64,000 nt of DNA, taken from positions 9,734,001-9,798,000 of the forward strand of contig NC_043014.1 of the NCBI RefSeq assembly GCF_006345805.1. Direction: 5' to 3'. A program made the translations under genes and the position numbers. Under the pieces are notes generated by a model. It was not told the DNA's origin. It worked only from the letters and a program-made list of their open reading frames with translations, and made no database searches. Below are positions 2,931 to 60,947 of this stretch, in pieces (within the stretch, counting starts at the first letter, position 1; each line of letters starts with the position of its first letter). This DNA comes from Octopus sinensis. Its lineage: Eukaryota.

Positions 2931-3992
2931 TATGCGTTAGGTAGATACACATAAATATATCTGTAATATTTGTCTACGTGTGTCCGCGTGTGTGTGTCTG
3001 TATGAGTGTGTGTTTGTGTTTTACTTTGTATTTAGCTCTCTTGCTAGCTATCTACATACACAGATATATACATGCGTATGGGTGTGTATAATAAAAGAAG
3101 GAAGATGAACAGAGTTTACATAGTTATATTCTAAACGAAACTGTATTTTGGTTGCCGACCGGTTTCGGTTTCGCTAATCATGACTTTGAAATTATTTCAT
3201 ATTTCCATTCACAAACTTTCATACAGGAACATGAAATAAATGTGTGTTGAGGAAATATACACGCACTCATGCATCCATAGATACACTTACACACATACAG
3301 ACGCATACACACAAATAAGATAGATACATATGTATACATACACACGCCCTCTCTCTAACTCATATGCACAAATACTCCACATGATTACTCATGCGCTATA
3401 CTTAAAACGAGCATAAATGTAGACAACGGAAACGAGGTAGGATGAGATCGCACAAAAAGACATATTAATCTCAGTGCATCAAATTGTTCTGCAATGTTTT
3501 GGAGTTTGATATTATTTCGCAGCAGTGGAGCGGTTGTCCTGCAGCAACAATCTGAAGAACTATTTTCCATAGCGGCACAGTAAAGTGCCAGTCCAGATGC
3601 GTGGCTTGGTGCAATTGAACAACTAGGCTAATTATCGTGGTGGAGTTTGTTGCTGTCAATGCTGATTTCAATCAAGCAGTAATGTCTGACTCCAGTGTAT
3701 GTTACTTTCCATAGAAATACAGCAAAAGGTCTTCTTTCGCACTTCCTCAGAAAGAAGTCCATTAACGGTTTAGTAATATAAGAGTTCACGAAGAAGTATT
3801 TTGTTGTTTTTTTTTTTAATTTCTTCTTAGGTTTTAAGAAATAGAAAAAAGAATTAGAATTCGGAAAGTATAGTAACGGAAATATGTTTGCAAGGCAGAA
3901 ATTTATATAAATAAATGAAACCTGATTCAAACACTTATATCACATTCTATTCATTTTCTATTACAATGAAAAATAAAAACATACGCACACAC

Positions 3993-4250
3993 AGGCGTAG
4001 GGGTGGCTGTGTGGTAAGTAGCTTGCTTACCAGCTACATGGTTCCGAGTTCAGTCCGACTGCGTGGCACCTTGGGCAAGTGACTTCTACTATAGCCTCGG
4101 GACGACCAAAGCCTTCTCAGTGGATTTGGTAGACGGAAACTGAAAGAAGCCCGTTGTACATATAAGTATATATATATGGGGGCGGCTGTGTGTCTGTGTG
4201 CGTTTGTGTGTATGTGTTTGCCCCCCCCCAACATCGCTTGAGAACCGATG
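3993..4250 (+). mobile_element. SINE family 2, 5' part
   Basis: Head aggcgtaggggtggctgtgtggtaag, CORE-like accttgggcaagtg, internal microsatellite. Confidence 0.85.
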
Positions 4251-4254
4251 TATT

Positions 4255-5062
4255 GACAACCAAGTATTTTTTTATGCTGAGGAATAGATCGTAGTCAGAT
4301 GGCGTCACATCAGTAGACTATGGAGGCTAATCAACCAGTTCAAAGCTGCTCACATACAGTATCCATCGAAATGAAGTTTTTGATCGGTGGATCATTGTCC
4401 TGATAAAGCGAATCAACTTTTGTCAGTTTTCCACAACCTTTCGTCTTCATAGCGTTTCGTGACTGTCTCAACAATTTGGCATAGTACTCTCTACAGATAG
4501 CATGGCCCTTTTTCAAGACAGTCAATAAACTTTTCAGGTCATCAACTTCCCAGAAGAGTAAACGACGTTGGCCTTCCTTGGGGTCGGTGAATAGGGGTGT
4601 TTCCAAGGAACAGGGATGTTTTCAGTGCACAGTTTGTTTCTTTGTCTCTGGCTCAAAATGGTGAAGCTAACACTCATCCTGGGTTAGGAAACATACAAAA
4701 AAATCAGTTAGATCTACCTCATACAATATCGGATTTTCCCATGATGTAATAAGCCTGGTGAACTTTTGATCCCATGTCGGAAGACGTGACAGACGCCGAG
4801 CACAAACCTTCCATCATATCAAGTTCACTGAGCAAAATATTCTGAAATTTCTATGCTAATATACTCTCTGTTTCGCTTTTACTTGTTTCAGTCATTTGAC
4901 TGTGGCCATGCTGGAGCACCGTCTTTTAGTCGAGCAAATCGACCCCAGGACTTATTCTATCGGTATCTTTTGCCGAACTGCTAAGTTACGGGGTTGTAAA
5001 CACACCAACATTGGTTGTCAAGCGATGTTGGGGGGACAAACACAGACACACACACATATACA

Positions 5063-5124
<62 letters not shown>

Positions 5125-5775
5125 CACATATATACGATGGACTTCTTTCAGTTTCTGTTTACCAAATCCACTCACAAGGCTTTGGTCGAGACGAGGCTAT
5201 AAGTAGAAGACACTTTCCCAAGGTGCCACGCAGTCAGACTGAACCCGGAACCATATGTTTCGTAAGCAAGCTACTTACCACATAGCCACTCCTACGCCTG
5301 ACTATTAGATTATGGTCTGTTATCATTGACTTTTAGATTATAGTCAATAGTCTGTCTTTCATCACCATGTGTTGAACGTGATAAATGTTTTCCTCGGTGC
5401 TAGCAGTTGCAGTACGCCCAGATATTTGATCATCTCCGAGATCCTCCTTTCGCGCTCTAAATTCAGTTGCTTAATTTATTCTGTTGCTAACGCTGGAGCG
5501 CCATCCTCCATTGTAGCTTTCATGTCAGTATGAATGTTTTTGTGGTCTAAACGATTATTCTGGAGGTACTTGATAACACCACGAATGCGAAATTTTACCC
5601 ATTTTACAGAGATGTCACAACTATTTACTTTTGAAGTCTTCTTCGAACGGGCAAATGTGGGTTTATCTGGAAAGAACTAATGTGGTTATTAAGGAGAGAT
5701 TGAAATGAATGCATGCACGATTTCACTGTCATAGGACTGCTTCATTGTCAACCTATGAACTTCTCAGTCCTTCTT
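4255..5775 (-). pseudogene. Decayed mariner transposase, split by a SINE
   Basis: Fragments YYAKLLRQ, LYQDNDP and TPSDYDLFLSIKKYL match the mariner HQDNAP and YSPDLAPSDYHLF motifs; frameshifts present. Confidence 0.8.
4876..5299 (-). mobile_element. SINE family 2, full length, nested in mariner
   Basis: Head and tail (cagcatggcc...gactgaaacaagtaaaag) both present. Confidence 0.9.
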
Positions 5776-6031
5776 CTTGCTTCTATGTATATGTGACTGT
5801 GTGTTTGCGTGTGTGTGTGTGCGCATATATCTATCAACAAGCCCATCCACGTAAGTGTGTGTGTGTATATATCTCTATTTCTATCTATTTGTCTATCTAT
5901 TTCACTATCTATCGCTCTTTATCTTTATCTAACTATATGTCTATCTATCTCTCTATCTATTTATCTCCCTGCCTCTCTCTCTTTCTCTATGTATATACGT
6001 ATATACATATATATAGGTATATATATATATA

Positions 6032-6260
6032 CTTTATTTAAAGCAGCAGAAAATTCAACAAAACCTGTTACTCTGAGTTTCATGTTGCCGTTCATCGGAC
6101 AGTTTTTGCTAGCAAAAACTGCCCGATGAACGGCAACGTGAAACTCAGAGTAACAGGTTTTGTTGAATTTTCTGCTGCTTTAAATAAAGCATATTACTCT
6201 ACCACTGGTATTTGAGTACTCTTTTTTCCACCTTGTTTCACATTTATGTGTTTACTCCGG
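6032..6260. mobile_element. Fold-back mini-element family B (Penelope-like terminal repeat derivative) with hammerhead-like fold
   Basis: Palindrome 6032-6189 centred on gctagc plus a 70-bp tail; CCGATGA 6123-6129, GAAAC 6140-6144; second copy at 36940-37173. Confidence 0.8.
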
Positions 6261-6602
6261 TATATATATATATGAGAGACAAAAGTGAATTTTCAATTTA
6301 GACACCGCCGAAGAGAGAGAAGTCATACCAAAAATTTCAAGTAAAACAAGATGATTTAGCTAATGTGATGGAAACGATAATCAAGTCATTTAATTTAATA
6401 TACAACGGAGAAATGATGCATACGGTGTAGATGTTACATCTAAGATAAACATTTACTAGGAATTGTATCAAATCAAAATATATTTGAAACAGATTTAAAT
6501 GAGTTTACTGTTAAGGTGTACAGGAATATATATATATACACACACACACATATATATATATATATACATATATACATATATATGTATACATATATACATA
6601 TA

Positions 6603-6724
6603 TTGGCCTGCTCGCTTAGCCAGCGGGGTGGAGTCATTTGAAGGCTAAAACAATGCGAAGCGCATTGTGACCAGCAATGTGTAACAACATCTGATAGCCT
6701 GGTCGGTCACGGTGGTCACGGTGA
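6603..6724 (+). mobile_element. ~120-bp RTE-tailed short element (family H)
   Basis: Same ends as copies at 23228-23340 and 42209-42327; 3' half resembles the RTE tail at 21735-21798. Confidence 0.8.
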
Positions 6725-6741
6725 TATACATACATATATAT

Positions 6742-6798
<57 letters not shown>

Positions 6799-6800
6799 AT

Positions 6801-6844
6801 CCTTAAATCCTTAAAAGATTTTTAGCCCGAAGGCCGCGGCCATG
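6801..6844 (-). mobile_element. Isolated LINE-type 3' tail
   Basis: Reverse complement catggccgcggccttcgggctaaaaatcttttaaggatttaagg: CATGGCC, stem-loop, then a short terminal repeat. Confidence 0.55.
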
Positions 6845-6889
6845 TATGTATATGTATATGTATATATATTGTTATACGGGCATAAACTG

Positions 6890-6924
<35 letters not shown>

Positions 6925-7174
6925 GCTGACTAGTTTCTGTAGACAAATATGTGTAATTCTTTGTTTATGAACTTATTTGGAAGTCCGTTGTTTAAGTGCA
7001 TTTATTTCTCTATTGAATTAGAAATATGCATTAGTAATTTGAAATTCGGTTTAGAACGATTAAATTAATAAATGCTTCAATGAATTGAAGATGCCTCAAA
7101 CGTGTATTTATTGATAGTGACACACACACACTCACACCTAAACATTCACACGCGGACAGATATGTGAAAATGCG

Positions 7175-7222
<48 letters not shown>

Positions 7223-7269
7223 CCTATATATAATATATAAAATAAAATATTTCACAAAAGTTTGTATAC

Positions 7270-7300
<31 letters not shown>

Positions 7301-7320
7301 ATATATATACGTACGTACGT

Positions 7321-7587
7321 GTATATTGGTACAGGTCCAAAATTAAGCCGAGGTGTCGAAGCCATAAGGACTTCCGTATATAACGGAGACAGAAAATGGA
7401 GAAAAATTGATGATCAAAATGTATATATTTATATATAGATAGATATATATTTACATATATATATATATATATATAATATGCTTACATACATGTATATTGG
7501 TACCGGTCCAAAATTAAGCCTGAGGTGTCGAAACCATAGTGATTTCCGTATATAGGAGATAGAAAATGGAGAAATATTGATGATCAA

Positions 7588-7634
<47 letters not shown>

Positions 7635-7654
7635 ATATATATACATACATGCAT

Positions 7655-7730
<76 letters not shown>

Positions 7731-8021
7731 TATATATATTATGCTTACATACATACATGTATATTGGTATCGGTCCAAAATTACGCCAGAGGTGACGAAA
7801 CCAGAGAGATTTCCGTATATAAAGGAGACAGAAAATGGAGAAATATTGATGACCAACAATTGACATACATGAATTATAATGCATTAATTCAATACAAATA
7901 GACTGCATTCCGTCTAACAACTGTTTCCGTTCCCAATGTTGTATAGTATTGCCATTGATATGCTAAAAATATTTGTCATGTTTGGTAATAAAACCAATCT
8001 GAAACATGGAGCTTCACCAGA
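7321..8021 (-). repeat. Three ~100-bp direct repeats separated by (TA)n, followed by a degenerate hammerhead-like motif (Penelope-like terminal repeats)
   Basis: Units at about 7321-7417, 7491-7587 and 7759-7856; minus strand reads ctggtga...gaaacagttgtt at 7915-8019. Confidence 0.6.
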
Positions 8022-9363
8022 GTGAAGGATAAACGAAAACGAAGTGCCTAGAGAACGAAAAGGAAAAGTTGAAAATGGTTGTAGTCATACCATTTTGCTT
8101 GTGTGTCGCTTTGGAACGTTAAGTACACGACTAAACTTAAAATACTATTTGGTGGATTAGTCCTTAGAACGGAGGGATAAGATGGATAAATAATGAGAAA
8201 AATAAATTTAAAAGTGGGATACGCCAATATATTTTAGTCGGAGAAGTGCAGAAGACAAAATAAGGTTTTAAATTAATCATGATTATTTAAAAAATAATCA
8301 TGATTCTTTTTAATGTTTATAGTACTAATTAATAGTATTTATCATAATAAAGTGTTAATCTATTAAATATTAATTTTTTATGTACTTGTAGGTGGTTAAA
8401 CTCTTCCACTTATTCCGATGTGTGACAGGCCAAGGTCCAACGTTCAATATATTTTGTCAGTTGAAATTTAAAAACCAAAAAGCAGCTATTGAGACCATTA
8501 TACGGGGTAAGATAAACAAATAAATGAATGGGGAAATGGTGTATGTTGTGAAGGGTCCTAAAACGCTTAGGATAGTATATACTAGATTTTTTAAAAATTA
8601 ATATTATGAAATAAATATTAAGAGTGAAACCTATTTGACATTTAGGAAAGAAGACGGTTGGGGGTGATCCTCCATGGGGAATGATAGGGGAATGGATACT
8701 TGTACACACAATAGTTTAAATTTATGTTAATAGTAAAGATAACTGGTATTATATGATTATAAAGGAGTGTAAAGTTTATATTGAGGAGTAGTAAAATTAA
8801 GGAAAATACTATAATTTAACTATTATGTGTGGAAGATGGAATCTTAGAACTTGGATGAGTTTAGTGTAAGAATACAATAACACTGTTTACACACTCTATG
8901 CTTGGATTGAACAATTTTAAATACAATTGGAACTTACACACAAGGTACAGGAAACTTATATGTTTACCATTCTACTTAAATAATGGAACTGCAGATGCAA
9001 TATCCCTGCATATCTCACATCTGTTTTCATTCCTCCACTTCACTCTCTATCTCATATCTTCCCTAGAATTACTATTGCTTAACCTTTTTTTTTTGGTATT
9101 TTTCTCCGATGCAGGAATATATAAAATATCCAGATGTAAGACATTCTCTTTATAAATATTCTGAAATCTTTCACAGCCTTGGATTTTTATTTTATTTCAT
9201 TCTGTTATTATTTTTATATATATGCATGCTAATATATGACCTACGTTGAACCTAATATTAATTTGCATAATCACCGAACCTGGAGCTTAACTATAGTCTG
9301 TCCATAGCACTTACTCAGCATTACCTTACATCTTTGGGTCTTATTGACACCATTACATCTCAT

Positions 9364-9410
<47 letters not shown>

Positions 9411-9482
9411 CACTTATGTATAGAGAGAGAGAGAGAGAGAGAGAGAAGGAATGGTGGATGGAGGGATAAATAGATTGAAAGA

Positions 9483-9535
<53 letters not shown>

Positions 9536-9999
9536 CACTTATGTATATATAGAGAGAGGGAGAGGGAAGGTGGAAGGAGAGATAGCGAGATGGATAGATA
9601 AAGAGATAGATAGATAAATAGATGGAAAGAATATATAGATTAATTAGATACATGAATGGATAGAACCAAGATAAATGGAAGGGGCAAGTCCGTTCAATAC
9701 ATCAATTTAACTTTGTTTTCTTTCTGAATTCATAATATCGTATAGAAATAATTTCCTGATAGAATTTGAATGAACTAAGATTATAAATATAGCGAGTCGG
9801 GTGCGGTTACAAGAGCTCGTCTACATTTTACAAACGGAATAAAACAATGGTGAGTATTAAGTGGTTAAGGAAGAAAAGAACAAGTAAAAAAAATGAGCAT
9901 GCAGACGAACCGGTATGTGTGCGAATGTGCAAGTATGTGTGAGTATGTGTATGTGTGAGTATGTGTATGTGTGAGTATGTATCAATGTCTTTTAGTATC

Positions 10000-10950
10000 T
10001 TAATGAAAGTATTTTTAAAGACGCTTGCAACTATTTGATAACTGCATACTTCTTCAAAATGGCGTCCACGCTTTATAAATGAACCAAAGTATTTTGTTGA
10101 TTTCTTCGCTTGTCAACTACGTCACCCATCATCCTCGAAGGCGTCTTGTCGTATTGTACTGTAAACAGTTATTTATTAACTTTATTTTTATTATATAGCC
10201 TCTTAAAAACTTCCCCAATGTTTCTTTTCTGTCTGGCAAACAGATCTATATTATATTCATACAATCGCTTTGGAATATTTTTTGTATATACAATTTTGTA
10301 GTTTTGTAGGCTGTATTGATTTGCTTTTCTGGACAATTTTTTCTATTTTTGTAATCTATATATTATCGTTTTTATAAAGAAATTTTTTATGTTGTCTTTC
10401 TTATTCATATCTTTACCCGTCACACATAAGTATTTATTGTCCGGCAGTTTTGCTTTATTTTCGTTTTCTATTTCTGACAATAAAATGCGAATTCCTTTTT
10501 TGTCATTCACATTTCTTTTTCTTTTACTACTGTGTATATTCATTTTGTGGTCTCTTGTGCAATTTTCTCCAGCCAATAAACAGTCGTTCTGATGAAAACT
10601 TGGATAGTTACATAGCAAATCTCTTCAAGTTTAATAATAGGAATAGTATCTTCAATTGTTATAATCTCACGTACATCTATGCTGCATTTTCATACATCTG
10701 TTATTAATCCTATTCTACAGAAGTGATTAAATTACTGCACTGCTTAATAAACATCTTCAGATTTTCTTTTGGTCTATTTCTAACTTTTCGATTCTCTTCG
10801 TAGGTTTCTCATTCATCGTTTACTCTCCATATATCTCCTTCCTTTTCATGATCCCGCGCCATTCTTTCCCTAGTCAACAAACTACTTGACCTTTTTCTCC
10901 CCACATATCTTTACACAACAATTTTGCTTGGAATGCAAATTGCTTGTTTA
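10000..10950 (-). pseudogene. Highly decayed RTE-like reverse transcriptase remnant
   Basis: MARDHEKEGDIWRVNDE and KRKRNVNDKKGIRILLSE occur in the order expected for RTE ORF2 (the KGDVxxCxNYRGIxLLS region). Confidence 0.35.
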
Positions 10951-11619
10951 CCTCATAAGATTTTTATACTTCCATACATTTAAGAGAATTTTTTTTGCTT
11001 TCAGCGATTTTATTTCATTTTATTTTATTTTATTTCATTTCATTTTATTTCATTTTATTTCATTTTATTTCATTTCATATCCATTCGTATTTTTTCCCTC
11101 CATTACACGTCGTTTCACTTTTAATTTCAGTTATGTTTCAGCTTATTTACTTTAATAGTTCGACTTTATATTATATTCCATATTAAAAGAATATTAGCAT
11201 AGTTTAAGTAGATTTCTTGAGCGAACTATTAAGAAGACCATCAGCATACACATATGTCTACAAAACCTACGTAAAATTTAATCTTTATATTTTCAATACA
11301 ATTGCAGATTTTTCAAACTGTTATTATGTTGAATTTATTTATATTATTATATATTTTGAAATGGTTTGTACACCAATTTCTTTGACAGTTATATCGTGCA
11401 ACCTCAAGAGCTGATACAAAATATATTAAAACGTTTTATTATGTTTTGTGGGATGTTTGTTACGCTTCAATAACGGTTTGAATTTATCTCACTGAGCACT
11501 CTGTTTGTTGAACAATATTATATATCTTGTATCTATTTTATGAGATGCGCTACTAATATATAAATCTCACCATTTCTTATATGTTATGTCTTGTATTTGT
11601 TTCATTCATACACAAAGGC

Positions 11620-11943
11620 CAGGCACCAGCATGACATTGAAGAGTTTAGTCGAACAAATCAATAAAAATACTTGTGTTTAAGCCCGGTAATTATGTAGTA
11701 GGTTGCCTTTGATGAACCGCTAAGTTGTCAGGTTGCAGACTATAAATAGAAAGACACATATTCACGCACATATGCAAATACATCACGTACACGTGTAGTG
11801 TCTCGTAGTTTTCGTCTACGAAATCCACTCATAAGTCTTAGGTTGGCCTAGAGTTTATACTTGGAGGCAATTGCTCAAAATGTCGTGAATTGAAACTGAA
11901 CCGATGTCAACAAGCTTGAGAAACAAGCTTCTTATCACACAGT
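11620..11943 (-). mobile_element. Old diverged SINE family 2 copy
   Basis: Residual gaaccgctaagtt, cgtctacgaaatccactc and cttatcacacag. Confidence 0.6.
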
Positions 11944-11971
11944 CCAAATGAAAACTCTGTCAACAGTAACG

Positions 11972-12092
11972 ACATCGTTTCGGGTTCAGTCCCACTGCAT
12001 GGCACCTTGGGCAAGTGTCTTCTCTTATAGCCTCGGGACGACCAAAGCCTTGTGAGTGGATTTGGTAGACAGAAACTTAAAGAAGCCAGTCG

Positions 12093-12174
<82 letters not shown>

Positions 12175-12385
12175 GTGTGTGTATGTTTGTGTTTCTGTGT
12201 TGGTCGCCCAATATCGCTAGTCAATCGATGCTTGTGCGTTTACGTCCTCGTCACTTAGCGATTCGGCAAAAGAGTCCGATAGAATAAATACTAGGCCTTC
12301 AAAGAATACATTTTGCGGCCGATTTGCTCGACTAAAGGCGGTGCTTCAGCATGGCCGGAGTCAAATGACTGAAACCAATAGAAGA
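11972..12385 (+). mobile_element. SINE family 2 (5' truncated)
   Basis: Body, (TA)(TG) tract and tail. Confidence 0.9.
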
Positions 12386-12702
12386 CAAATAATGAATTTG
12401 ATCGAAGATATTTATATCGATGACTGTTTTAAGTAAAATATCGCACTCATTTTAATGCTAAAGATCAACATTTTGCCAAGGATTTTATGGATAGACATAT
12501 TTTGCATTGACCAGATAATTTTACATTATTGTTATCCATAACAAGAAAGACTATGTTAGCCCCACAACAGCGATGCTCAAACAAGTCTCAGCGAATATGC
12601 TCCAAGATTGGCAAGCCCGTCGCCTTTCAAATACAGTGTATGTGGAATCACATTCTACAATAATATGTTGTAAATTTTCCAAAGATGTTAAAATATGAGA
12701 GT

Positions 12703-13112
12703 ATTTACTCTCTTTTACTCTTTTACTTGTTTCAGTCATTTGACTGCGGCCATGCTGGAGCACCGCCTTTAATTGAGCAATTCGACCCCGGGACTTATTC
12801 TTTTGTAAGCCCAGTACTTATCCTATCGGTCTCTTTTGCCGAACCGCTAAGTAACGGGGACATAAACACACCAGCATCGGTTGTCAAGCAATGCTAGGGG
12901 GACAAACACAGACACACAAACACACACACGTATATATATACATATATACGACGGGCTTCTTTCAGTTTCCGTCTACCAAATCCACTCACAAGGCTTTGGT
13001 CGGCCCGAGGTTATAGTAGAAGACACTTGCCCAAGGTGCCACGCAGTGGGACTGAACCCGTAACCATGTGGTTGGTAAACAAGCTACTTACCACACAGCC
13101 ACTCCTGCGCCT
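12703..13112 (-). mobile_element. SINE family 2, full length
   Basis: Close match to other copies. Confidence 0.92.
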
Positions 13113-13125
13113 ATTTCTAGTACAA

Positions 13126-13325
13126 AGGCGGCAAGCAGTAGGATCATTATCACGACGGTCAAAATGCTTAGCGGTATTTCACCTGTTTTTACGTTCCGAG
13201 TTCAAATTCTGCCGAGATCGATGTTTATCCTTTCGAGGTCGATAAAATGAGAAAGATTTGAGTACTGCAATAGACTTAGACCCTCCCCCAAAATTGCTGG
13301 TCTTGTGCCAAAATTTGAAACCAAT
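13126..13325 (+). mobile_element. Older SINE family 1 subfamily
   Basis: aggcggcaagc head, gagttcaaatt, cctttcgaggtcgataaaa, alternative tail gtgccaaaatttgaaacc. Confidence 0.75.
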
Positions 13326-14329
13326 TTTATTTATTTCTACTATGTCCACCTACATTGTTATAGATGCAAGTAAGGAAAAACGTTCTTGTAAATAGCAATG
13401 TTATTCAGTTAAAGGTTTCAGGGTATAAGTTTAATATATAGTAATTCTATGACCATATAATTCTTATCGCTTTAGTGTTATAATGTTGATATGTTTGGGG
13501 TTGTCTTTGTTACATTTAATTCAATGTTTTCTCTGATAGGTGTTTTGCCAGTTTCGGATAAAACCAAAAGCGAAACAGACGTTAAGACGAAGAGAGTAAA
13601 AAAGGTAGTCAGTACTTTCTTCAACTTATCTACGTCTTCCTGCCATCGTACGCTGATAAGCATACATACTTAAAGTTGCATACACACACAAACACATAAC
13701 AGTAGATATGAGAAGCGTTTCCGCAAAAGAAACAAATAGAATAATTACAGGACGTCTCTTAATTATCAAGTGGAAATTAAGACCGATCTCTTATCAGTGG
13801 GAGGTAATCTCAAGCATCGTGAACTTTTCAAGCTTCGGCAGGTGTTTTGTCTGGAGTTATTTCCAGCTGTCACCCTATGACAATTGTATAACTAAGAAAT
13901 TTGCTCTTCTACAGAGAGGGAAGACATTGGTCGTCTCCCAATTTTAAATGACTGTGACATAATAAAAGTAATTTACTAGTAAGTCGTAGAACATTATATA
14001 ACATAAACGAATATGTAGGTAACTGTTATAGGCAATTTGCCTAATTTTTAGGTTTATAGGCGCATGCCTGCGTATGTTTGTCTATCTGTCTGCATGTAGG
14101 TATGTATGTTATGTGCGTGTATCCGTGTCCATGCGCGTGCGTATGTGTGTATGTGTACATATTTATTTATATGTGTGTGTGTGTCTCTGTGTGCGTGTGT
14201 GTGTTTCTGTGTGTGTGTGTGTGTTTCTGTGTGTGTATGTGTGTGTGTGTGTGTGTGCGTGTGTCTGAGTGTGGTTCTGTATGCTATTTTGACAACTTCA
14301 CCAACAAATGTACACAAGAAATTCTCTCG

Positions 14330-14576
14330 GTTCTATATTTAAGAGATGAGGAATTATGTACGTTATTTACATTATTTACATTTGACGGATATTTGTCCTC
14401 ATCTTGTTTGTTGTGATCACAACGTTTCGGCTGATATACCCTCTAGCCATCATCAGGTTCGAAATTTCCCCAAGACACCTGATGAACGCTGGAGGGTATA
14501 TCAGCCGAAATGTTGTGTTAACAATGAACAAGATGAGGACAAATATCCGTCAAACGTAAATAATGTAAATAATGTA
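14330..14576. mobile_element. Fold-back mini-element family C with minimal hammerhead motif
   Basis: Arms 14359-14458 and 14477-14576; CTGATGA 14479-14485, GAAA 14507-14510; related copy at 53668-53790. Confidence 0.8.
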
Positions 14577-14687
14577 AAAGATACTTTATAAAAAATAAGT
14601 TGCTCTATGTATCATGTTGCGCATATTGGTCTTCGCATCTATTTGCGTTTTTGAAAAATCATAATTTAGTTAACTTTATACTGTGAG

Positions 14688-14992
14688 CGTGGAGGCGCGT
14701 GGCTTAATGGTTAGAGTATTAACATCATGATCGCAATATTGTGGTTTCGATTCCTGGACCGGGCGACGCTTTGTGTTCTTGAACAAAACACTTCATTTCA
14801 CGTTGCTCCAGTCCACTCAGCTTGCAAAAATGAGTGACGCTGCAATGGACTGGCGTCCCGCCCAGCTGGGGAACACATACGCCATTGAAACCGAGAAAAC
14901 GGGCCCATGAGCCTGACAAGGCTTTAAAGGAGCGCACTTGTGGAGGCACGCCATAGAAACACATACGCATGGCTAGGCTTCAAAAAGGGCGA
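14688..14992 (+). mobile_element. tRNA-derived CORE-type SINE with V-domain-like 3' part
   Basis: A-box tggcttaatgg, B-box gtttcgattcc, CORE-like segment shared with 63536-63600, then atggactggcgtccc. Confidence 0.75.
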
Positions 14993-15314
14993 ATTTATTT
15001 CATTATTATACCGTGAGCATTTATTTATGTCTAAACAAATTTCAAACAATATACGCCTTAAGTATATATTAAGTATTTCAAGATGGGTTAATTCATGAGT
15101 ACTTGAAAATTAACTAAAAGTGACAGAACTGCCATCCGAAATCGCTATGGATCTTCTTTACAAAGAATCTTTTAACAATATAACTTCCCTCACAAAGTAC
15201 ACAGACCCATTTTACATGTTCCTCAGAATATTTAATTTCACTTTTAATTAAATCCATGTACATAATTGAATTTTTATATTTAACCATGTACTAAATTTAT
15301 ACTATACACACACT

Positions 15315-15345
<31 letters not shown>

Positions 15346-15369
15346 GGCACACACACATGTACATATATG

Positions 15370-15562
15370 TGTACCGTTGGCAATTTTTTCCCCTCTGTCT
15401 TCCCTTCTCTGGATCTTTCCTTCTCCTATGTTTCCGACGAAGAGCTCCGCTCGAAACGTTGAACCCTCCTTCTTTCCTTGTCTTCTGAGCGTCCAATAAT
15501 ACTATATTTGTTCCACGTCCTCGCGTTGTTGTGTTTTTTTGTGCTTTCTTGTTTGGATTAAC
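15370..15562 (+). mobile_element. Mini-element family D with hammerhead-like fold
   Basis: gttt CCGACGA a gagc-tcc-gctc GAAAC GTT gaac (15430-15464); ends in (TA)n. Confidence 0.6.
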
Positions 15563-15596
15563 TATATATATATATATATATATACTTACTTATGTA

Positions 15597-16103
15597 TTTG
15601 ATTTTTGATTTTGATTTATCCAGTTTCAGCTCATGAGCTGTGGGCATGCTGGGGCACCGCCATTTGGTTTGCTACATGATTTTACCTCACGAATGCTTTT
15701 TAGCAAGTGCCATTTGGTGCATAAGAGAGTGCGATGCAGCTGCCCTCATCTGTACCTCCTGCTGTGAAGTTGGTTCATCCGGGACACCTGACAGGAAGAG
15801 ATCCAGTCCTACTTTAAAGACATCCGCATCTACACCATGCAGGTCCCTCAGGTTCTTCGGGAGCATATTGAGGAGCTGTGGGCCTCTGAAACCCAGGCTA
15901 TCACAGTATCTTGTCCTACATCTTGATGGCAAATTTGGAGTCCTTGGTACCACGCAGTGGCGCCCGGTTCTGGCATTTGTGTGACTCTCGATGCCAAAGT
16001 TTGGGACAAGTCCTTCCAGGATCTTCCAGATGTATATTATGGCATATCTTTCTCGCTTACGCTCCAAGGAATAGAGTTTTAATCTCTTGAGTCTTTCCCA
16101 GTA
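15597..16103 (-). pseudogene. 5'-truncated CR1-group LINE (ORF2 C-terminus plus 3' UTR)
   Basis: YWERLKRLKLYSLERKRERYAIIYIWKILEGLVPN...FKVGLDLFLSGVPDEP; tail stem-loop and (aatcaa)n-type terminal repeat. Confidence 0.85.
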
Positions 16104-16742
16104 TGTATGTAGAAATTTTAATTTAAATGTACGTGTCCAAGAGTTTATACATATTCATCACATGATCCATATGTATATTATTGTTCAACAAACACATAAC
16201 CTACATCCATTAATTTTTTTTTATTTTCTCCAATTATTTTTTATTTCGAATTTTCAGTTCTCGTTCTCTCTCCCAACCTGTTTCCAATTGCGAGAGTCAA
16301 AAATTTATCAAATGAGATGAAAGCATTTGTTCAACATCTAATCAAAACTTACTTTGATATTCAAATCATTTCTACGCGATATTTTATACGGAAGTTTCAT
16401 TGTTGTATTGATTGCAATCGGTCGATGATCGAAAATGAGTATCGGGAACTAACGATATGAAATGTGTTCTGTTCTCAATAAATTATACATACATATATTT
16501 TCATATATATATATATATTATATATATATATATATATATACATATACACGCGCACGCACACATAGACACACATATATATAAATATGTATATATATATACA
16601 TATACATATATACGCGCACGCACACATAGACACACATATATATAAATATGTATATTTATATATATATATATGTGTATATATATATATGTGTATATATATA
16701 TGTATATATATATATATATATATACGTATATATAATATAATG

Positions 16743-16775
<33 letters not shown>

Positions 16776-16786
16776 GTGTATATATG

Positions 16787-16871
<85 letters not shown>

Positions 16872-16875
16872 TATG

Positions 16876-16912
<37 letters not shown>

Positions 16913-16991
16913 GTGTGTGTGTATATATATATATGTATATATATATGTATATATATATATAATATGTATATATATATATATATATATATGG

Positions 16992-17063
<72 letters not shown>

Positions 17064-17970
17064 GTGTGTGTGTGTTAAACATATATGACATATTATATAT
17101 GATTAGTTTATGTATCATATTTATGCATATACGTATGTATAACTATTTATCTATATTATATATATATGTGTGTGCGTGTGTGTATATATATATATATATA
17201 TATAGGGAGAGTATATATATGTGTGTATATATACATTTATATATTTACATTTATGTATATTTATATATGTACGAGTGTGCATGTGTTTGTGTGTGCTAGT
17301 GTAATCGTAAATTTACAATGCAGCATACGTAAATATCTTAATTTATTAGCCAGGAATAAGTAACAGACTGAAATAGAGAAGTTAGGTGCAGAGTGCAAAA
17401 TGAGGCTAAAGTAAAAAACAAAACAAAAAAAAAACAAAAACATAATGTTGAAAGACAAAAATAATAAAAAAAAAAACAAGTGGCAAACTTGATTAGAGAA
17501 CCATAAATTATGGAATCGCGAATCTAATACGATATGGAAAAAGGAAAAAAAAAATACATTGCTAATTAATTTCGTTTTAACAATAATGCTTTTTCGCGCC
17601 GTGGAACGCGTATATATTGATTGATCTTTTAATGAAATCCAGCGCGGTTATATCAATAAATTATAGGAGGCAAGTTATACATTTATAACAATATCGTATG
17701 CTTTAGGCTTTTTTTTTCCTGTTTGTCATTCATGGAATAATTTATTTATATGATTTCCATTTTAGTTATCCGACATTTTATTGACGCTCAGCAAAAGTCA
17801 GCTGTGCGATTCTTTACGTATGTAAATTTCTCCGCAGCCATGCAAAATTATCCTCAGACCCAAATTAACCTGGTTTACTCTAACCATGTTTTCCTGCTTG
17901 TGTAATGTATGTATGTATATATATTATATATATATTTATACATATATATCTATAATATACATATATATAT

Positions 17971-18021
<51 letters not shown>

Positions 18022-18184
18022 ACATATATATACGTATGTGTATGAGTGTGTATATATGCGCACACACTCTTATACATGCAACATTTATAAATGTAAATAG
18101 ATGTGTAGATAGCGAGTGACAGAGATAGAAAGACTGATGCTTTGTGAGCAAATTTGGGAGCTGAATATCGCGTTATACCCTGAG

Positions 18185-18240
<56 letters not shown>

Positions 18241-18350
18241 GTATATATATATATATATATATATACGTATAATATATATATATATATATATACATATATA
18301 TACATACGTATATATATATATATATACAATAAATATATATATATATATAC

Positions 18351-18383
<33 letters not shown>

Positions 18384-18392
18384 ATTATATAA

Positions 18393-19632
18393 ACTTGATA
18401 CTTTGATACTTTGATAGGTTTCGGCCATTTTGGCCAGGCCATGTCTAACTTAATAGCACCACCTGGTGAAGTCTTTCAAGTCAGAATTTGGGCACTATGG
18501 CCCACTCAAGTAGAGAGTTATTGTTTACAGAGACATATCCGGGTGTAGGTGTAGGGGGGTTTATCCGGGATTTCTTGAAGGAATCTGTCCAAAGACTTCT
18601 TGAACCCTATAGGGTCAGTTTCTGTTTTAATGTGTTTTGGGTAATGTTAAAGAGAGCGGGGCCAATTGAGGTGAAATAATTGTGCCGTATTGTTGTTATG
18701 AGATGAGAGTGCGATTTTTGTTTTGGGCGGATGGCACGGGCCCAAGCCTTGGATGTACCTTAAAGGTGATGCCAACATAATTTGGGCAATGCTGATGGAT
18801 ATTTTCCACATCATGCAGATGATGTAGCGCTCACGACGACGTTGGAGAGAATAGAGTTTTAGCTTTTCTAGTCGACCCCAATAGTCGAGGCCTGTCATGC
18901 CATCTATCTTTTTTGTGATTGCCCTTTGAGGTGCTTCAACTTTTATGATACCTTGTATTGTGTGGGGAGACCACAGTGGACAACAGTATTCAAGGTGGGG
19001 TCGGGCAAAAGTGGAGAAGAGAAGGATAATGGTGTGGATATCTCTCGACTGGAAAGTTCTGAGAATCCAGGAACACATTCTGCGGGCCATGTCAACTTTG
19101 GTGTTTATATGAGTGGCCCAGCTTACGTTGTTGTCCACAATTACTCCCAAGTCTCTGATGTTGTTGGACGCCGCGAGAGTTTCACCTGAAGGAAGGGAGT
19201 ATGGGAGTTTCAGGGCATCCTCTTTCCAAAGTGGATTAGCTCAAATTATCCTCGTTCAGCAGCATATTGTTTTTTTCTGCCCATTGGATAACAGCCAGTA
19301 GATCTGACTGAAGGCATGTCCGGTCACTCGCCTCATTTATGACCTTCTGTAGCTTGGAGTCATCTGCAAAGATTTTTATGTTGCTGTGCTTGATGATGTC
19401 ATTAATGTCATTAATGTAAATGATGAAAAGAAGTGGCCCAGCACAGTGCCTTGCGGAACGCCACTACTGACTTTGGCTGGGCTTGATTTTACCCCTTCAA
19501 CTACAACATGTTGAGATCTGTCTGTCAGGAAACACTTAATCCATTCAGTAACTTTCCAGAGACACCAATGTTGGATAGTTTTTTCAATAGGATCTTGTGA
19601 TCGACTCTGTCGAAGGCCTTACTGAAATAAAG
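18393..19632 (-). pseudogene. 5'-truncated CR1-group LINE with RT domain
   Basis: [21 protein letters not shown] (~19360-19371), RPHLEYCCPLWSP and YSLQRRRERY; (tatcaaag)n terminal repeat; frameshifts. Confidence 0.92.
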
Positions 19633-19652
19633 GTATATATATATATATACTT

Positions 19653-19689
<37 letters not shown>

Positions 19690-19710
19690 TATATATATAT
19701 ATATATACTT

Positions 19711-19741
<31 letters not shown>

Positions 19742-19851
19742 GTATATATATACTTTATAGATATACATATAATATATATACTTTATATATATATATACAT
19801 ATATATATACATTATATATATATATACATATATATACATATAATACATATA

Positions 19852-19901
<50 letters not shown>

Positions 19902-19928
19902 TTTGTTTGTCTTCTTGTCGAGAGAGCT

Positions 19929-20024
19929 TCTTTTCTTTCCTGATGAGAGTAGATTGCATAATGCACCCTTATTCCTTCGGAATGAGAATATGCTGTCTTC
20001 GAAACATGTGTCGAGAGTAAAGGA
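19929..20024 (+). ncRNA. Type I hammerhead ribozyme (intact core) in mini-element family A (19898-20068)
   Basis: CTGATGA 19940-19946, GAAAC 20001-20005, GTC 20010-20012; stem I 11 of 12 pairs (two or more G-U); bulged stem II; palindromic ACATGT stem III. Confidence 0.8.
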
Positions 20025-20274
20025 ATTTTGTTAACATCTTCGTTCAACTCCATTCTTTCATTTATTCATATATATATATATGTATGTATGTATATACACA
20101 TGTACATGTATGTGTGTGTGTATATATCTGTATGTATGTTTAAAATAGTTAGATCCATAGGTGTATATATATATACATCAATATATATATATATATATAT
20201 ATATAACACCACAGGGTGGTATTCCTATACATTGTATCATATACATCATATATATTATATATATATATTATATA

Positions 20275-29896: not shown

Positions 29897-30323
29897 CGAA
29901 AGAAGGTTTGAAAATGCAATTTAAAATAAAAGATGTTTATTTACTTAACCGGTTTCACTCTTTGGAAAAGATTGTCAAAAGTAACATAGAATATTATGAA
30001 TTCAAAAAAGTTTTTTACATAATTGCCACATAACATGTATATATACAGTCTTTGGTAACAGGGACATGTTAAGGACATAAAGAAGTACAACAGTGTGATG
30101 AGAATATTTGAAAAAATGGGCAGAAAAGAATAAAACAAATATATTATTGGAAGTTTGGTTGCGTTATATATATATATTTCAGTTTCCGTCTACCAGATCC
30201 ACTCACAAGGCTTTGGTCAGCCCGAGGCTATAGTAGAAGACACTTGCCCAAAGTGCCAGGCACTGGGACTAAAACCGGAATTATGTGGTTGGTAAGCAAG
30301 CTACTTACCACACAGCCACTCCT
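29623..30323 (-). mobile_element. SINE family 2 interrupted at its microsatellite by a ~270-bp insert (29897-30166)
   Basis: Tail half 29623-29800 and head half 30177-30323. Confidence 0.85.
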
Positions 30324-31307: not shown

Positions 31308-31725
31308 CAATGTGAGGTATACTTGCCATCTCAATATGGCTAACCACTAAGGGTGGGTGTTACTGTAGCTTGTAGCCCCAGGAGAACATCGTCTCCAGCT
31401 GGCTTTATTATTGCTTGCATACAGTTTTTCGAGATTAGTGACGAAAAGTTACTGGAAGAACGATATAAGGATTTGCATTGGAACACCTTTTCATCGAAAA
31501 CCGGTGATTGTCGTACGCTGAGGACAGGTAAAAACCTAGAATCTAAAGTCCGTGCGTATCACTTAGGTTGACGAGGGAAGGGTGACCTCCCTTTGCAAAT
31601 ACCATAAGGGCACAGAAAGTGTTCCAATAGCCAGCTGGAGGAGATGTTCTCCTGGGGCTAGAAGCTACAGTAACACTCACCCTTAGTGGTTAGCCATATT
31701 GAGATGGCAAGTATACCTCACATTG
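31308..31725. mobile_element. Element with 97-bp terminal inverted repeats and an internal hammerhead fold
   Basis: Arms 31308-31404 and 31629-31725; cgtacg CTGAGGA c-aggt-aaaa-acct-a GAAt ctaaa GTC cgtgcg at 31512-31556. Confidence 0.8.
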
Positions 31726-36870: not shown

Positions 36871-36939
<69 letters not shown>

Positions 36940-36940
<1 letters not shown>

Positions 36941-37173
36941 CGGAGTAACACATAAATGTGAAACAAGGTGGAAAAAAAGAGTACTCAAATACCAGTGGTA
37001 GAGTAATATGCTTTATTTAAAGCAGCAGAAAATTCTACAAAACCTGTTACTCTGAGTTTCACGTTGCCGTTCATCGGACAGTTTTTGCTAGAATCTAGCA
37101 AAACTGTCCGATGAACGGCAACGTGAAACTCAGAGTAACAGGTTTGTAGAATTTTCTGGTGCTTTAAATAAAG
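36940..37173. mobile_element. Fold-back mini-element family B, second copy
   Basis: Palindrome 37011-37173; CCGATGA 37108-37114, GAAAC 37125-37129, GTA 37135-37137. Confidence 0.85.
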
Positions 37174-51626: not shown

Positions 51627-51812
51627 GGAGAGTTTACGAAAAAAAAAAGACGACGACAGATGGTGTACAAAACAAACAGATGTATTAGTATAACGCTCAG
51701 GAATAGAAAAAGTCTTTTACATTTCGAGCCTACGTTCTTCTAGAGAAAGGGGGACAAAGAAAAAACAAGGAGAGAAAAAAATGTGTGTAGTGGCTAAAGA
51801 TCTATCATGGCG
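51627..51812 (-). mobile_element. Mini-element family E (degenerate hammerhead-like)
   Basis: Reverse complement homologous to 55210-55385. Confidence 0.65.
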
Positions 51813-51834
51813 TCTATGTGTATATATATACATA

Positions 51835-52165
51835 TAGTAATGGTAAGACAACAAAAGAATGAAAGAGATCTCGATATTATGTAAATAGAGAAATTTATCT
51901 GTAAAATAATATGTGACAATTATTCGGTTGCTATAAGATTCCGAGTTTTGGACGTCGAGGCGGAAACCTGCATCGGTATCTCTTCAGTTATCGAAGCAAT
52001 CAAAGAGGGAGAAAGATAGGTTGGTAGCAATGACAAGGGTTAAGCAGTGATACGTAGTTCTCGTTGAAGAGGAATTGAAATGGCGGTGGGGAAAGGAATT
52101 CGAAGTATGGAGCGGGCGTAGCAGGAGGTAAAGAATGAGGGTCTAGTTGGGAAGAAAGACAGTCG
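51835..52165 (-). mobile_element. Mini-element family F (degenerate hammerhead)
   Basis: Reverse complement gataa CTGAAGA...aAAACTCGGAaTC ttat; homologous to 55450-55570. Confidence 0.6.
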
Positions 52166-52214
52166 ATATATATATAATGCAAAGAGTATCGATACACACA
52201 CACATACACATACA

Positions 52215-52686: not shown

Positions 52687-52757
52687 CCAGAGTAAGCACA
52701 TAAATGTGAAACAAGTTGGGTAAAATGGTACTCGAATACTGAAGGTAGAGTAATATC
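52687..52757. mobile_element. Family B tail-only fragment
   Basis: Similar to 36940-37010. Confidence 0.65.
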
Positions 52758-52785
52758 TTTGTGATGCCTTACAGCTTAATAATAT

Positions 52786-55422: not shown

Positions 55423-55449
55423 AGAATATATATATATATATATATATGT

Positions 55450-55570
55450 TTCATAGTATTTTTCCGATGGCCGGATAACTGAAGAGAAGGCGGCGTGGAT
55501 TTCCACCTCGACATTCGAATCTCAGAGTTTTATCATGGCTACAGAATAATTGCCTCATAGTATATTTACA
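55450..55570 (+). mobile_element. Mini-element family F
   Basis: gataa CTGAAGA (55479-55485)...GAAtCTCAGAGTT ttatc; lies in (TA)n. Confidence 0.65.
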
Positions 55571-55572
55571 GC

Positions 55573-55639
<67 letters not shown>

Positions 55640-59135: not shown

Positions 59136-60137
59136 CGTGAAGACAGAAATATTAACCGTAAGCTATTGGTAATTACACAAAATTTATAATATAAAATAAA
59201 CAGTACAGATATCAATTGTCAGTCTAAAATATGAAGCTAAATTATTCAATAGTGAGTGATGGCTGTGGGTGTTTTTGTATTTATAACGTGTTCAACGACT
59301 AGATTTCTTTATATCCTCAACCATTCATTTTGTTTTTCTCCCTTTTTTTTCTCTCTAATCACAGTGGATGCATTCATTGTTGTTCATGTATTTGTCAATG
59401 CTGCAACTTTAGTTGCTTTTCAGTTAAATTTTATCTCCGTTTCGCTTTTTGTAGGATTCTGCTGTTCTCGCTTTCTCTTGCTTTGTATGTTAATTTTGCG
59501 AAAGTACTTTTGTTGGTGTTCGCCAAGTCGTAAAATGTATCTTAGAATCACGCTCAGAACTAGAATACGACGTCAATTCAATTAACGTGCTTTAAACCAT
59601 ACGGATTCAATTGGAATATGTTCCTTTAGATTTTCTGTTAATCATTGTTGCTTTTAGTATTATTACTCTAGAATAGCTAAACAAAGAAATTATATTTGGT
59701 TAAAAGTTAACCTAATGAAATGGGTAGTTACAGAATCATCTAGTTTAAGCTGTAAGCATCCTGCTTTTATTTTCACTCTGGATCTTAAATGACAAATCAA
59801 TAGCGAGAGAGTTTGACATTGAGATAGTAACAGAAACTATACAAAAGCAACACCTTTCAATATTTCGTTGTTATATCACACTTCTGGTAAATTCAACAAT
59901 TATTGTTCAACCAAATATTATCTAAGACTGATGTAAAGAATTCCGATTGAAGAAAACATGGTTTATTAGATTGTGGACACTCCTTTCACGAGTGCAGAAC
60001 CCTGCCATGTTCTCAGTTATATCTCACTTTTCTTTTATCGCTGAACAGAACCTTTTTACTTTCTCTTCACAAACTTGTACTTATACAGAATTGCGATACA
60101 GTTTACAAGTATTTAAGAAAAAGTAGAGCATCGTATA

Positions 60138-60337
60138 TACTCTTTTACTTGTTTCAGTCATTTGACTTCGCCCATGCTGGAGCACCGCCTTTAGTCGAGC
60201 AAATCGACCCAGGACTTATTCTTTGTAAGCCTAGTACTATCGGTCTCTTTTCCCGAACCGTTAAGTTACGGGTACGTAAACTCACCAGCATCGGTTGTCA
60301 AGCGATGTTGGGGGGACAAACACAGACAAATACACAA

Positions 60338-60368
<31 letters not shown>

Positions 60369-60540
60369 CGTATACATGTATACGACGGGCTTCCTTCAGT
60401 TTCCGTCTACCAAATCCACTCACAAGGCCATACTCACGAGGCTATAGTAGAACACACTTGCCCAAGGTACCACGCATTGGGACTGAACCCGGAACCATGT
60501 GGTTGGTAAGCAAGCTACTTACCACAAAGCCACTCCTGCG

Positions 60541-60543
<3 letters not shown>
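60138..60543 (-). mobile_element. SINE family 2, full length
   Basis: Head to tail. Confidence 0.9.
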
Positions 60544-60579
<36 letters not shown>

Positions 60580-60580
<1 letters not shown>

Positions 60581-60947
60581 TAAGTAGTTGAATGAATTAT
60601 CCTAGTATGGATAATTCGGTTAACCGATACCCGGGTAGCAAATTTACGTCAGAAAGCACTGTTGAAGCTACATGCCAAGGGCAGAAATCACGTGCTTTCT
60701 TGTGGAAATTTGTGTTTTTTTACTAAAGATAAATGAAAGGATGGAGTCGAACGACGATTTAACAAAATTCCTTTATTCTCGACACATGTTTCGAAGACTT
60801 CATATTCTTAATTCCGAAGGAATAAAGGGTGCACGGCATAATGCACCCTTTATTCCTTCGGAATTAAGAATATGCAGTCTTCGAAACATGTGTCGAGAAT
60901 AAAGGAATTTTGTTAAATCGTCGTTCGATCCATTCTTTCATTTATCT
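60580..60947. mobile_element. Fold-back mini-element family A (long palindrome)
   Basis: Arms 60727-60833 and 60842-60947, homologous to 19956-20065. Confidence 0.88.

Follow-up and report, generated by a model that had tools for sequence, protein, structure and literature searches.

A 64-kb stretch of the Octopus sinensis genome, referred to here as the window, contains about 15 fragments of small elements belonging to seven families. Many of them carry hammerhead-like motifs or fold back on themselves, and the question that they raise is what kind of genetic element has left them there.

Hammerhead motifs in the window

We ran a strict hammerhead descriptor on the window and on 40 shuffled versions of it; three sites were found in the window and none in any of the 40 shuffles. 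A tolerant score for minimal hammerheads, which admits the published U3-A8 covariant and was written once the sites had already been seen, with its layout taken from the published consensus, returned 11 sites at a cut-off of at least 29, as compared with a mean of 0.03 and a maximum of 1 per window in 100 shuffles. All 11 lie at loci named in an earlier note on this DNA, spread over 8 of its 14 named insertions. This comparison with shuffled sequence, a check that the note itself had proposed, confirms that type-I minimal hammerheads, with CUGANGA and GAAA boxes, an NUH site and helices I and II, are present far above chance. The further claim that all the insertions share one layout fails for A38059, A60580 and C53668 (3 of 14), where a complete hammerhead is absent, and position 3085, given as the start of the array, has a best score of 12.8 and no hammerhead. 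Neither copy of E is significant alone (E55210, 23.8 with 1.4 sites expected; E51627, 17.3 with 27 expected), nor is F51835 (22.1 with 4 expected); these are decayed hammerhead copies. The 29897 element scores 32.7 with the U3-A8 covariant and 24.2, which is not significant, without it.

Covarying stems, also named by the note as a check, were found for helix I of the D/E type. Among 13 sequences, in which helix I lay outside the search pattern, four of the five pairs had changed on both sides, and the covariation score was 0.342 as against 0.121 in shuffled and at most 0.132 in slid alignments. Across 16 clusters of this type, some of them related, the count was 38 of 48 pairs, as against 27.1 after permutation. 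Helix III is palindromic, a form suited to dimer folding, and reads ACGU in C, D and E, ACUC-R-GAGU in B and F, ACAUGUGU in A and ACCGGU in the 29897 element, which also has a 6-bp helix I and an irregular helix II junction. The intact A copy combines a long helix II with an 8-nt self-complementary helix III and a GUC site, and D combines U4C with an additional A after A9, helix II GAGC/GCUC and a GUU site. U4C is also present in the B hammerheads at 6032..6260, which have a Hydra-clade layout. Monomer folds were unremarkable (z −1.95 to 0.01), and folding as a monomer is not expected of minimal hammerheads as these are described in PMC4209133. No hammerhead family appears among the best 150 of the 336 Rfam matches listed for the window. 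The matches listed are mostly to miRNA models driven by microsatellites.

Families, inversions and insertion sites

Table 1. Elements in the window, with the C3 position and strand of each hammerhead site scoring at least 29
Element	Coordinates	Strand	Sites	Features
A	19897..20067	+	19940+	complete hammerhead; score 32.8, 0.01 expected; non-inverted; flanked by (TA)n tracts
A38059	38059..38274	.		fold-back; inversion point downstream of hammerhead, so without ribozyme; one-sided tail of ~140 nt
A60580	60577..60947	.		fold-back inverted within helix II; CUGANGA box missing; one-sided tail
B	6032..6260	.	6098−, 6123+	head-to-head fold-back; ~70-nt tail at right
B	36939..37173	.	37077−, 37108+	fold-back; tail at left
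B, tail alone	52687..52760	−		83% match; absent from the earlier note
C	14330..14576	.	14456−, 14479+	fold-back; 4-nt palindromic helix III; outside (TA)n
C53668	53663..53787	.		fold-back; inversion downstream of hammerhead; without ribozyme
D	15373..15562	+	15434+	intact minimal hammerhead; 3′ end at (TA)n
E55210	55205..55385	+		D-related; U at core position 6, plus G8U
E51627	51627..51812	−		U at core position 6, plus G5C
F	55448..55575	+	55479+	Hydra-type hammerhead; A15.1U; score 29.5; flanked by (TA)n tracts
F51835	51847..52005	−		C3 51987; G12A; longer 3′ tail
31308 element	31308..31725	+	31518+	97-bp inverted arms around decayed Hydra-type hammerhead; A15.1U; outside (TA)n
29897 element	29897..29990	−	29978−	single element; U3-A8 covariant core; 3′ end at (TA)n

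The earlier note had counted at least eight unrelated families with no shared primary sequence. This stands except for D and E, which are related over a whole-length alignment (z 11.1 and 5.3), so that the families number seven. Its description of fold-back, palindromic elements is borne out by 7 of the 14 insertions: A38059, A60580, both B copies, both C copies and the 31308 element. The inversions are head to head, and in A and B they leave one-sided tails, window tails being about 60–140 nt long. Breakpoints differ from copy to copy in A and C. The two B fold-backs, which are 93.5% identical, have nearly equal inversion points, with 24 and 30 nt separating the two C3 positions, and their junctions differ. 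Both E copies start within about 10 nt of one another. F51835 carries G12A in its window copy, G being the letter in 90% of contig depth. E and F are adjacent twice, in permuted order.

Pairing in the fold-back takes in the entire ribozyme (−136.7 kcal/mol, z −21.9). The perfect hairpin is predicted to mask the ribozyme, which makes it unlikely that self-cleaving RNA and long dsRNA come from one molecule, as had been suggested. Elsewhere the ribozymes would need a dimer or the help of a protein, and Lunse et al. reportedly found that PLE hammerhead variants cleave as dimers.

For the genomic setting we took 15 elements, the 14 named insertions plus the B tail at 52690. An end lies within 12 nt of (TA)≥5 in 11 of the 15, as against a background of 2%, a count that is partly circular because some element ends were drawn at the tracts. 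The association with (TA)n that the note had reported holds to this extent, and does not extend to the two C copies, the 31308 element or F51835.

Relation to Penelope-like elements

No Penelope-like element (PLE) ORF was found in the window, either by tblastn or with a 47-sequence PLE profile (best iE 0.26) that is Neptune-like and that Hydra ORFs could escape, and Pfam gave nothing useful for 12 window ORFs. The window thus offers no PLE ORF by which one of its families could be linked to a parent element. The D-type pattern was found at 120 outside loci in other animals, which have only the ~28-nt hammerhead in common with D; U4C occurs in 48 of them. Locus L037 has a reverse transcriptase (RVT_1, E 5e-8) and, on the same strand, a GIY-YIG-type ORF that ends 676 nt upstream of the motif. 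This endonuclease ORF is itself not recognized by Pfam, and several of its 62 homologues have PF01541. By its CxxCxxC linker, judged by eye and with no tree, L037 may be Neptune-like. At L007, a PLE ORF remnant occupies −789 to −286 relative to the motif (E 3e-29). A clear same-strand ORF remnant is present at 2 of the 67 outside loci that have at least 600 nt upstream, and a few others are weak. Fold-backs occur at 40 of 117 outside D-type loci and at none in the reversed control, and in an outside family that makes fold-back fragments the longest copy extends into a PLE ORF. In the largest outside family, 57 of 80 unique loci have less than 20 nt upstream of C3 and 9 have at least 200 nt; only loci with a complete hammerhead entered the outside set, so this count does not include copies whose break lies within the motif.

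The window elements share a set of features with the 3′ ends of Hydra-clade PLEs (Craig 2021): an 8–10-nt palindromic helix III, a short helix I, cleavage after A, U or C, a (TA)n target, and inverted 5′-truncated copies with a second hammerhead. In the parts of that study compared here, nearly all Hydra families target (TA)n, and in one of them an inverted, 5′-truncated copy has hammerheads on both strands. B and Hydra-2_aMil agree in the strands of helix I, in the palindrome of helix III and in the cleavage base; B differs from the Hydra clade in U4C, in a 3-bp helix II and in having no Hydra ORF attached in the window. The earlier note had left open whether such elements were described in cephalopods; the supplement of the same study already holds an octopus family, Hydra-1_Obim, with a tabulated hammerhead and a (TA)n target. 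Its helix III motif is absent from the window. When six window motifs were compared with this supplement, the sole match was 14 nt of F in two octopus Naiad 5′ regions, and in one search of it four of the six gave no match. The rest of F does not follow the Naiad match, which we regard as chance or unexplained; canonical hammerheads are described as absent from Naiads.

Minimal metazoan PLE hammerheads (Cervera and de la Pena 2014, PMC4209133) match those of the window in layout: the two are alike in their U-rich leader, CUGANGA-H, G10.1-C11.1, ACGU palindrome and U3-A8 covariant, in their solo and opposite-strand copies, and in the presence of many families per genome, molluscs included. Solo motifs are interpreted there as truncated PLEs, and opposite-strand pairs lie 100–700 bp apart. 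U4C in B and D and the apparent A6U of E fall outside the descriptions in the parts of that paper used for comparison. Penelope elements of Adineta vaga (PMC3846280) likewise have head-to-head inverted pLTRs, junction palindromes, one-sided tails and solo pLTRs; they differ in being mostly ORF-attached, with tails of ~31 bp, whereas the window elements are ORF-less with tails of ~60–140 nt. Such tails are reported to arise from two RT start sites (PMC11167929), and cleavage by the PLE hammerhead has been described as dispensable for insertion in vitro.

With a probability of roughly three in four, the elements derive from about seven endonuclease-bearing PLE families and represent their 3′ pseudo-LTR ends, 5′-truncated and often inverted head to head. 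We count in favor of this the observed motifs, the inversions, the one-sided tails, the variable breakpoints of A and C, and the linkage of outside D-type motifs to PLE ORFs. The L037 and L007 ORFs, together with the match of B to Hydra-clade hammerheads, make the connection to PLEs stronger than the earlier note could show. B would be a Hydra-clade-like end, and A, F and the 31308 element may be assigned likewise on hammerhead layout alone; D and E would be Neptune-like or other ACGU-type ends, with C placed beside them by its layout. Each family would have an autonomous parent in the same genome, and most copies are probably dead ends.

Family E and competing explanations

Both window copies of E lack the canonical A at core position 6. 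In E51627 the majority letters of other copies bring back G5 and helix II, and none is listed that alters position 6; at position 51742 no letter other than U is listed in four sequencing runs. Runs X22 and X23, in which 5 and 57 reads aligned and the unique flank was left uncovered, are uninformative for the source genome. Run X1 has 10,754 contigs on the E–F stretch, and its summed depth, which is not equivalent to copy number, is about 0.5–4.5 million over E and 23 on the unique flank, the 5′ part of E being roughly as deep as its hammerhead. Family E thus appears to be highly repeated, A6U seems to belong to its consensus core, and to judge from these letters the core looks impaired; the family may have multiplied while its ribozyme core was damaged.

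These data bear on a reading in which E above all, and perhaps B, are self-propagating, non-autonomous solo pseudo-LTRs, whose transcripts PLE proteins would copy in trans as fixed units, of ~185 nt in E and of the palindrome in B. We consider it rather unlikely, and it is compatible with truncated PLE ends. The near-equal E starts and B inversion points fit fixed-length families and count against simple truncation; the X1 depth over E and its 5′ part points the same way, pLTRs alone are able to drive insertion in trans (PMC3846280), and non-autonomous PLEs are already known in Chlamys. On the other side, there are just two copies per family, the B junctions are unlike each other, and the E–F stretch covered by the contigs is blind to further 5′ extension of other E copies. 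Near-equal ends can also arise independently, because even the family that extends into a PLE ORF has its breakpoints clustered immediately 5′ of the hammerhead.

Non-LTR retrozymes, which would form circular RNAs through hammerhead cleavage, for instance with E and F as a two-ribozyme unit, are very unlikely. Animal retrozymes (bioRxiv 10.64898/2026.07.22.740005) resemble the window elements in being non-coding, in carrying type-I hammerheads and in their origin from PLE pLTRs; retrozymes are described as leaving monomers, and the permuted E–F neighborhoods would suit them. As described there they are defined by tandem same-strand units with a hammerhead in each, a layout absent from the 64-kb window, and the E core looks impaired. 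The composite unit is rejected: the E–F junction is crossed at single-copy depth, 18.5 as against more than 390,000 on the F side, with repeat letters skipped at the junction. The term non-autonomous, retrozyme-like used in the note is not established, given the missing tandem units, the variable breakpoints of A and C and the fold-backs in an ORF-extending outside family. Almost no weight is left for the view that the motifs arose by chance in AT-rich repeats, or that they belong to DNA transposons of MITE type and merely look like hammerheads, although the plain monomer folds and the Rfam result would agree with them; the excess of sites over the shuffled expectation, the stem covariation, the inversion centers that differ within families and the one-sided tails, so unlike terminal inverted repeats, refute this explanation for A, B, C and D.

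Truncated PLE 3′ ends, as preferred here, are a phenomenon already described in animals, including octopus; the window contributes PLE end families that had not been annotated and illustrates how closely such ends can be packed. Its near-perfect fold-backs would, if transcribed, be strong sources of dsRNA, a point of note in cephalopods, whose RNA editing is heavy. Tentatively, and with considerable doubt, E may be a very high-copy, fixed-length (~185 nt) non-autonomous PLE derivative with an A6U consensus and a plain-hairpin fold, which spread while keeping that fold. Its amplification with A6U, and the way in which 5′ ends and inversions accumulate immediately 5′ of the core, would suggest the hammerhead region as a non-catalytic signal. 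If so, that region might act as a transcript start, an RT stop or a site of fold-back priming. A massively amplified, core-mutated family with breakpoints piled up at the core would bear on the function of PLE hammerheads, and E would then be a natural test of what they do.

Hammerheads beyond the chance expectation

A strict hammerhead descriptor found three hammerheads in the window and none in any of 40 block-wise dinucleotide shuffles of the repeat-masked sequence. A tolerant score, devised once sites had been seen, gave nine sites of at least 29, with none expected from 40 shuffles. When widened to admit the U3-A8 covariant, a published variant, and a base before G12, it gave 11 such sites against a mean of 0.03 and a maximum of 1 in 100 shuffles, counting sites in the unmasked window but shuffling it after 12,387 bases had been masked. 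All 11 fall where an earlier note had named them, in 8 of 14 insertions. The hammerheads of E55210, E51627 and F51835 (families E and F) are decayed and individually not significant. A60580 retains only the 3′ half, and neither the score scan nor a reading of the insertions revealed a hammerhead in A38059 or C53668, so that the motif is not common to all named insertions; none was found at 3085, the supposed start of the array. Families D and E align over their entire length (z 11.1 and 5.3), which reduces the eight unrelated families proposed to seven. Apart from these three sites and the family count, the earlier observation was largely right. Predicted folds of single hammerheads were no better than shuffles (7/7, z −1.95 to 0.01). 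The next-best score, 27.1 at 22824 (−), has two core mismatches (0.14 expected) and is probably chance.

Half of the insertions (7/14) are fold-backs, joined head to head with 3′ ends facing outward, as the palindromes already remarked on; A and B carry a one-sided tail. The reported association with (TA)n also stands, element ends lying within 12 nt of (TA)≥5 in 11 of 15 elements versus a 2% background, but ends were partly drawn at tracts. The window is 35% GC, with 173 (TA)≥6 tracts and one repeat in 15–20 copies.

Hammerheads scoring at least 29 in the widened score, and other features of the window
Feature	Position	Remark
Family B hammerheads		both arms, both copies
Family C hammerheads	C14330	both arms
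Hammerhead	A19940	one
Hammerhead	D15434	one
Hammerhead	F55479	one
Hammerhead	31518	one
Hammerhead	29978	one
Lone family B tail	52687-52760	beside (TA)n; absent from earlier note
Family A tail	38203-38262	weak match at 2765-2826 (75%, E 2.5e-4), the latter a possible fourth A fragment
14-nt stretch over F's first box	55474-55487; 51979-51992 (-)
E-F stretch	51627-52200
E position 6	51742
60-nt 3′ tail of F51835	51847-51906
SINE-like repeat(s)	220-994 and many places	15-20 matches each; much of window
100-N run (assembly gap)	about 35733-35832
Open frame	15687-16154 (-)	no Pfam match; resembles LINE RT C-terminal fragment by its motifs
Open frame	18647-19240 (-)	as preceding
Open frame	41854-42288 (-)	no Pfam match; resembles restriction-like endonuclease of non-LTR element by its motifs
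Open frame	43532-43930 (-)	no Pfam match; resembles mariner transposase fragment by its motifs

Two hammerhead types and their published counterparts

Families C, D and E combine an ACGU helix III of 4 nt with an extra base after A9, like the minimal-hammerhead consensus in the accessible part of Cervera and de la Pena 2014 (PMC4209133). There, thousands of minimal hammerheads per genome, in many families, are described as mostly solo and ‘probably related to truncated PLEs’ (Penelope-like elements), with pairs on opposite strands 100–700 bp apart, molluscan examples included, and with low cleavage, none as monomer; a review excerpt (PMC6765202) agrees on cleavage as dimer at low rates. Families A, B and F and element 31308 have a palindromic helix III of 8–9 nt resembling the Hydra-clade table of Craig et al. 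2021 (PMC8557442, in part), in which Hydra-2_aMil equals B in helix I strands, helix III arms and cleavage base. Because that table includes Hydra-1_oBim of Octopus bimaculoides, whose target is (TA)n, PLEs that carry hammerheads and sit in (TA)n are already in print for cephalopods; it also gives Penelope-13_HM, which has an inverted 5′-truncated copy and one hammerhead per strand. Excerpts of other papers report Penelope-like expansions in octopus (PMC13282606, PMC8967140) and 235 hammerhead-1 loci in giant squid (PMC6962438). Our literature search found no paper on these particular families. The stretch over F's first box recurs close to the 5′ terminus of two Naiad consensus sequences from octopus in the available Craig supplement, with different flanks.

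Outside loci, Penelope-like ORFs and insertion

The D-type core with helices II and III, searched in 42 of 64 parts of metagenome contigs, gave 120 outside loci, apparently animal host DNA. U4C occurs in 48 of them and so is not special to the window. In one locus, L037, an RT ORF (RVT_1, E 5e-8) and a frameshifted one, which has a CxxCxxC linker and a motif of GIY-YIG type, share the strand of the hammerhead and stop 676 nt upstream of it; the homologues that have names are proteins of fish and amphibians. Among 67 loci with at least 600 nt upstream, L007, of the largest family (96/120), has a PLE ORF remnant at −789..−286 (E 3e-29), and L017, L055 and L087 have weak remnants (iE 0.009–0.05). 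Helix I, outside the search pattern, covaries, with both sides changed in 4 of 5 pairs (0.342 versus 0.121 shuffled, 0/500, and at most 0.132 slid; 13 sequences, 10 hand-picked as cluster representatives). Since the outside loci resemble D over the hammerhead only, its link to PLE ORFs would be an analogy of type, short of proof of parentage.

Fold-backs make up 40 of 117 outside loci with at least 60 nt upstream, duplicates included, versus 0 in a reversed control. In the deduplicated largest family, drawn from loci chosen for their intact core, the native sequence that remains 5′ of C3 is under 20 nt in 57 of 80 loci and at least 200 nt in 9; 5′ ends and inversion points cluster within those 20 nt, and B and C in the window show the same clustering.

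The earlier interpretation, of retrozyme-like PLE derivatives, was half right: the ORFs of L037 and L007 near a D-type motif favour PLE derivatives, but a retrozyme identity was rejected for the elements of this 64-kb window by the tandem criterion in the available part of bioRxiv 10.64898/2026.07.22.740005. According to excerpts of PMC11167929, PLEs nick AT-rich sites, RT start at internal sites explains the optional tail, hammerhead cleavage is protein-assisted and dispensable for in vitro insertion, and RNA-seq lacks RNA ends at the hammerhead site; PMC3846280, in part, attributes head-to-head inverted pseudo-LTRs with junction palindromes to self-priming. The window insertions fit such behaviour because A and C break at varied points, upstream of, within and downstream of the hammerhead in three copies of A, and upstream and downstream in two of C. 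Judged from sequence, they would both work like and class structurally as PLE pseudo-LTR fragments, and are probably dead-end fragments of several PLEs. Of the self-cleaving RNA and dsRNA proposed, the B6032 fold-back may supply the latter: its transcript is predicted to form a near-perfect hairpin (−136.7 kcal/mol, z −21.9) spanning the whole ribozyme, making it a candidate dsRNA, not a ribozyme.

Families E and F in sequencing runs

Run X1 has 10,754 contigs on the E-F stretch. Its summed depth, taken not as copy number but only as ‘highly repeated’, is about 0.5–4.5 million over E, 3,000–22,000 over the F hammerhead, 0.2–1.1 million over the F 3′ tail and 23 over unique flank. The tail of F51835, tens to hundreds of times deeper than its hammerhead, may mark either a steep gradient of truncation or an abundant repeat of its own. 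E and F as one unit were rejected, since depth across their junction is no more than single-copy (with repeat letters skipped at that point).

Majority letters restore G12 in F (90%) and G5 (99%), helix II (92%) and ACGU (63%) in E. The E consensus core seems to be CUGUWGA, because no alternative letter at position 6 is among those listed for four runs, E55210 likewise has U, and the position is unchanged in 26 reads of run X23, apparently a single variant belonging to another genome. We consider A6U a likely consensus for E, with these caveats: of two changes beyond the letters listed, tallies imply that one is an A>T of at least 15% in runs X1 and X14, possibly at this position, the depth of X1 falls by half from 51737 to 51741, and copies with canonical A6 would have up to three adjacent mismatches, making trimming possible. 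In the fold predicted for E55210 with U6, the two strands of the core pair to give a rod. Hammerheads altered at position 6 are slow in Mg2+ (A6C; PMC3088659, PMC7151607, in part); a search of the accessible literature for hammerheads with A6U returned one unrelated entry.

Two leads appear worth following: family E with its apparent A6U, and the concentration of breakpoints along the 5′ edge of the hammerhead, of which we found no description in the accessible PLE literature.
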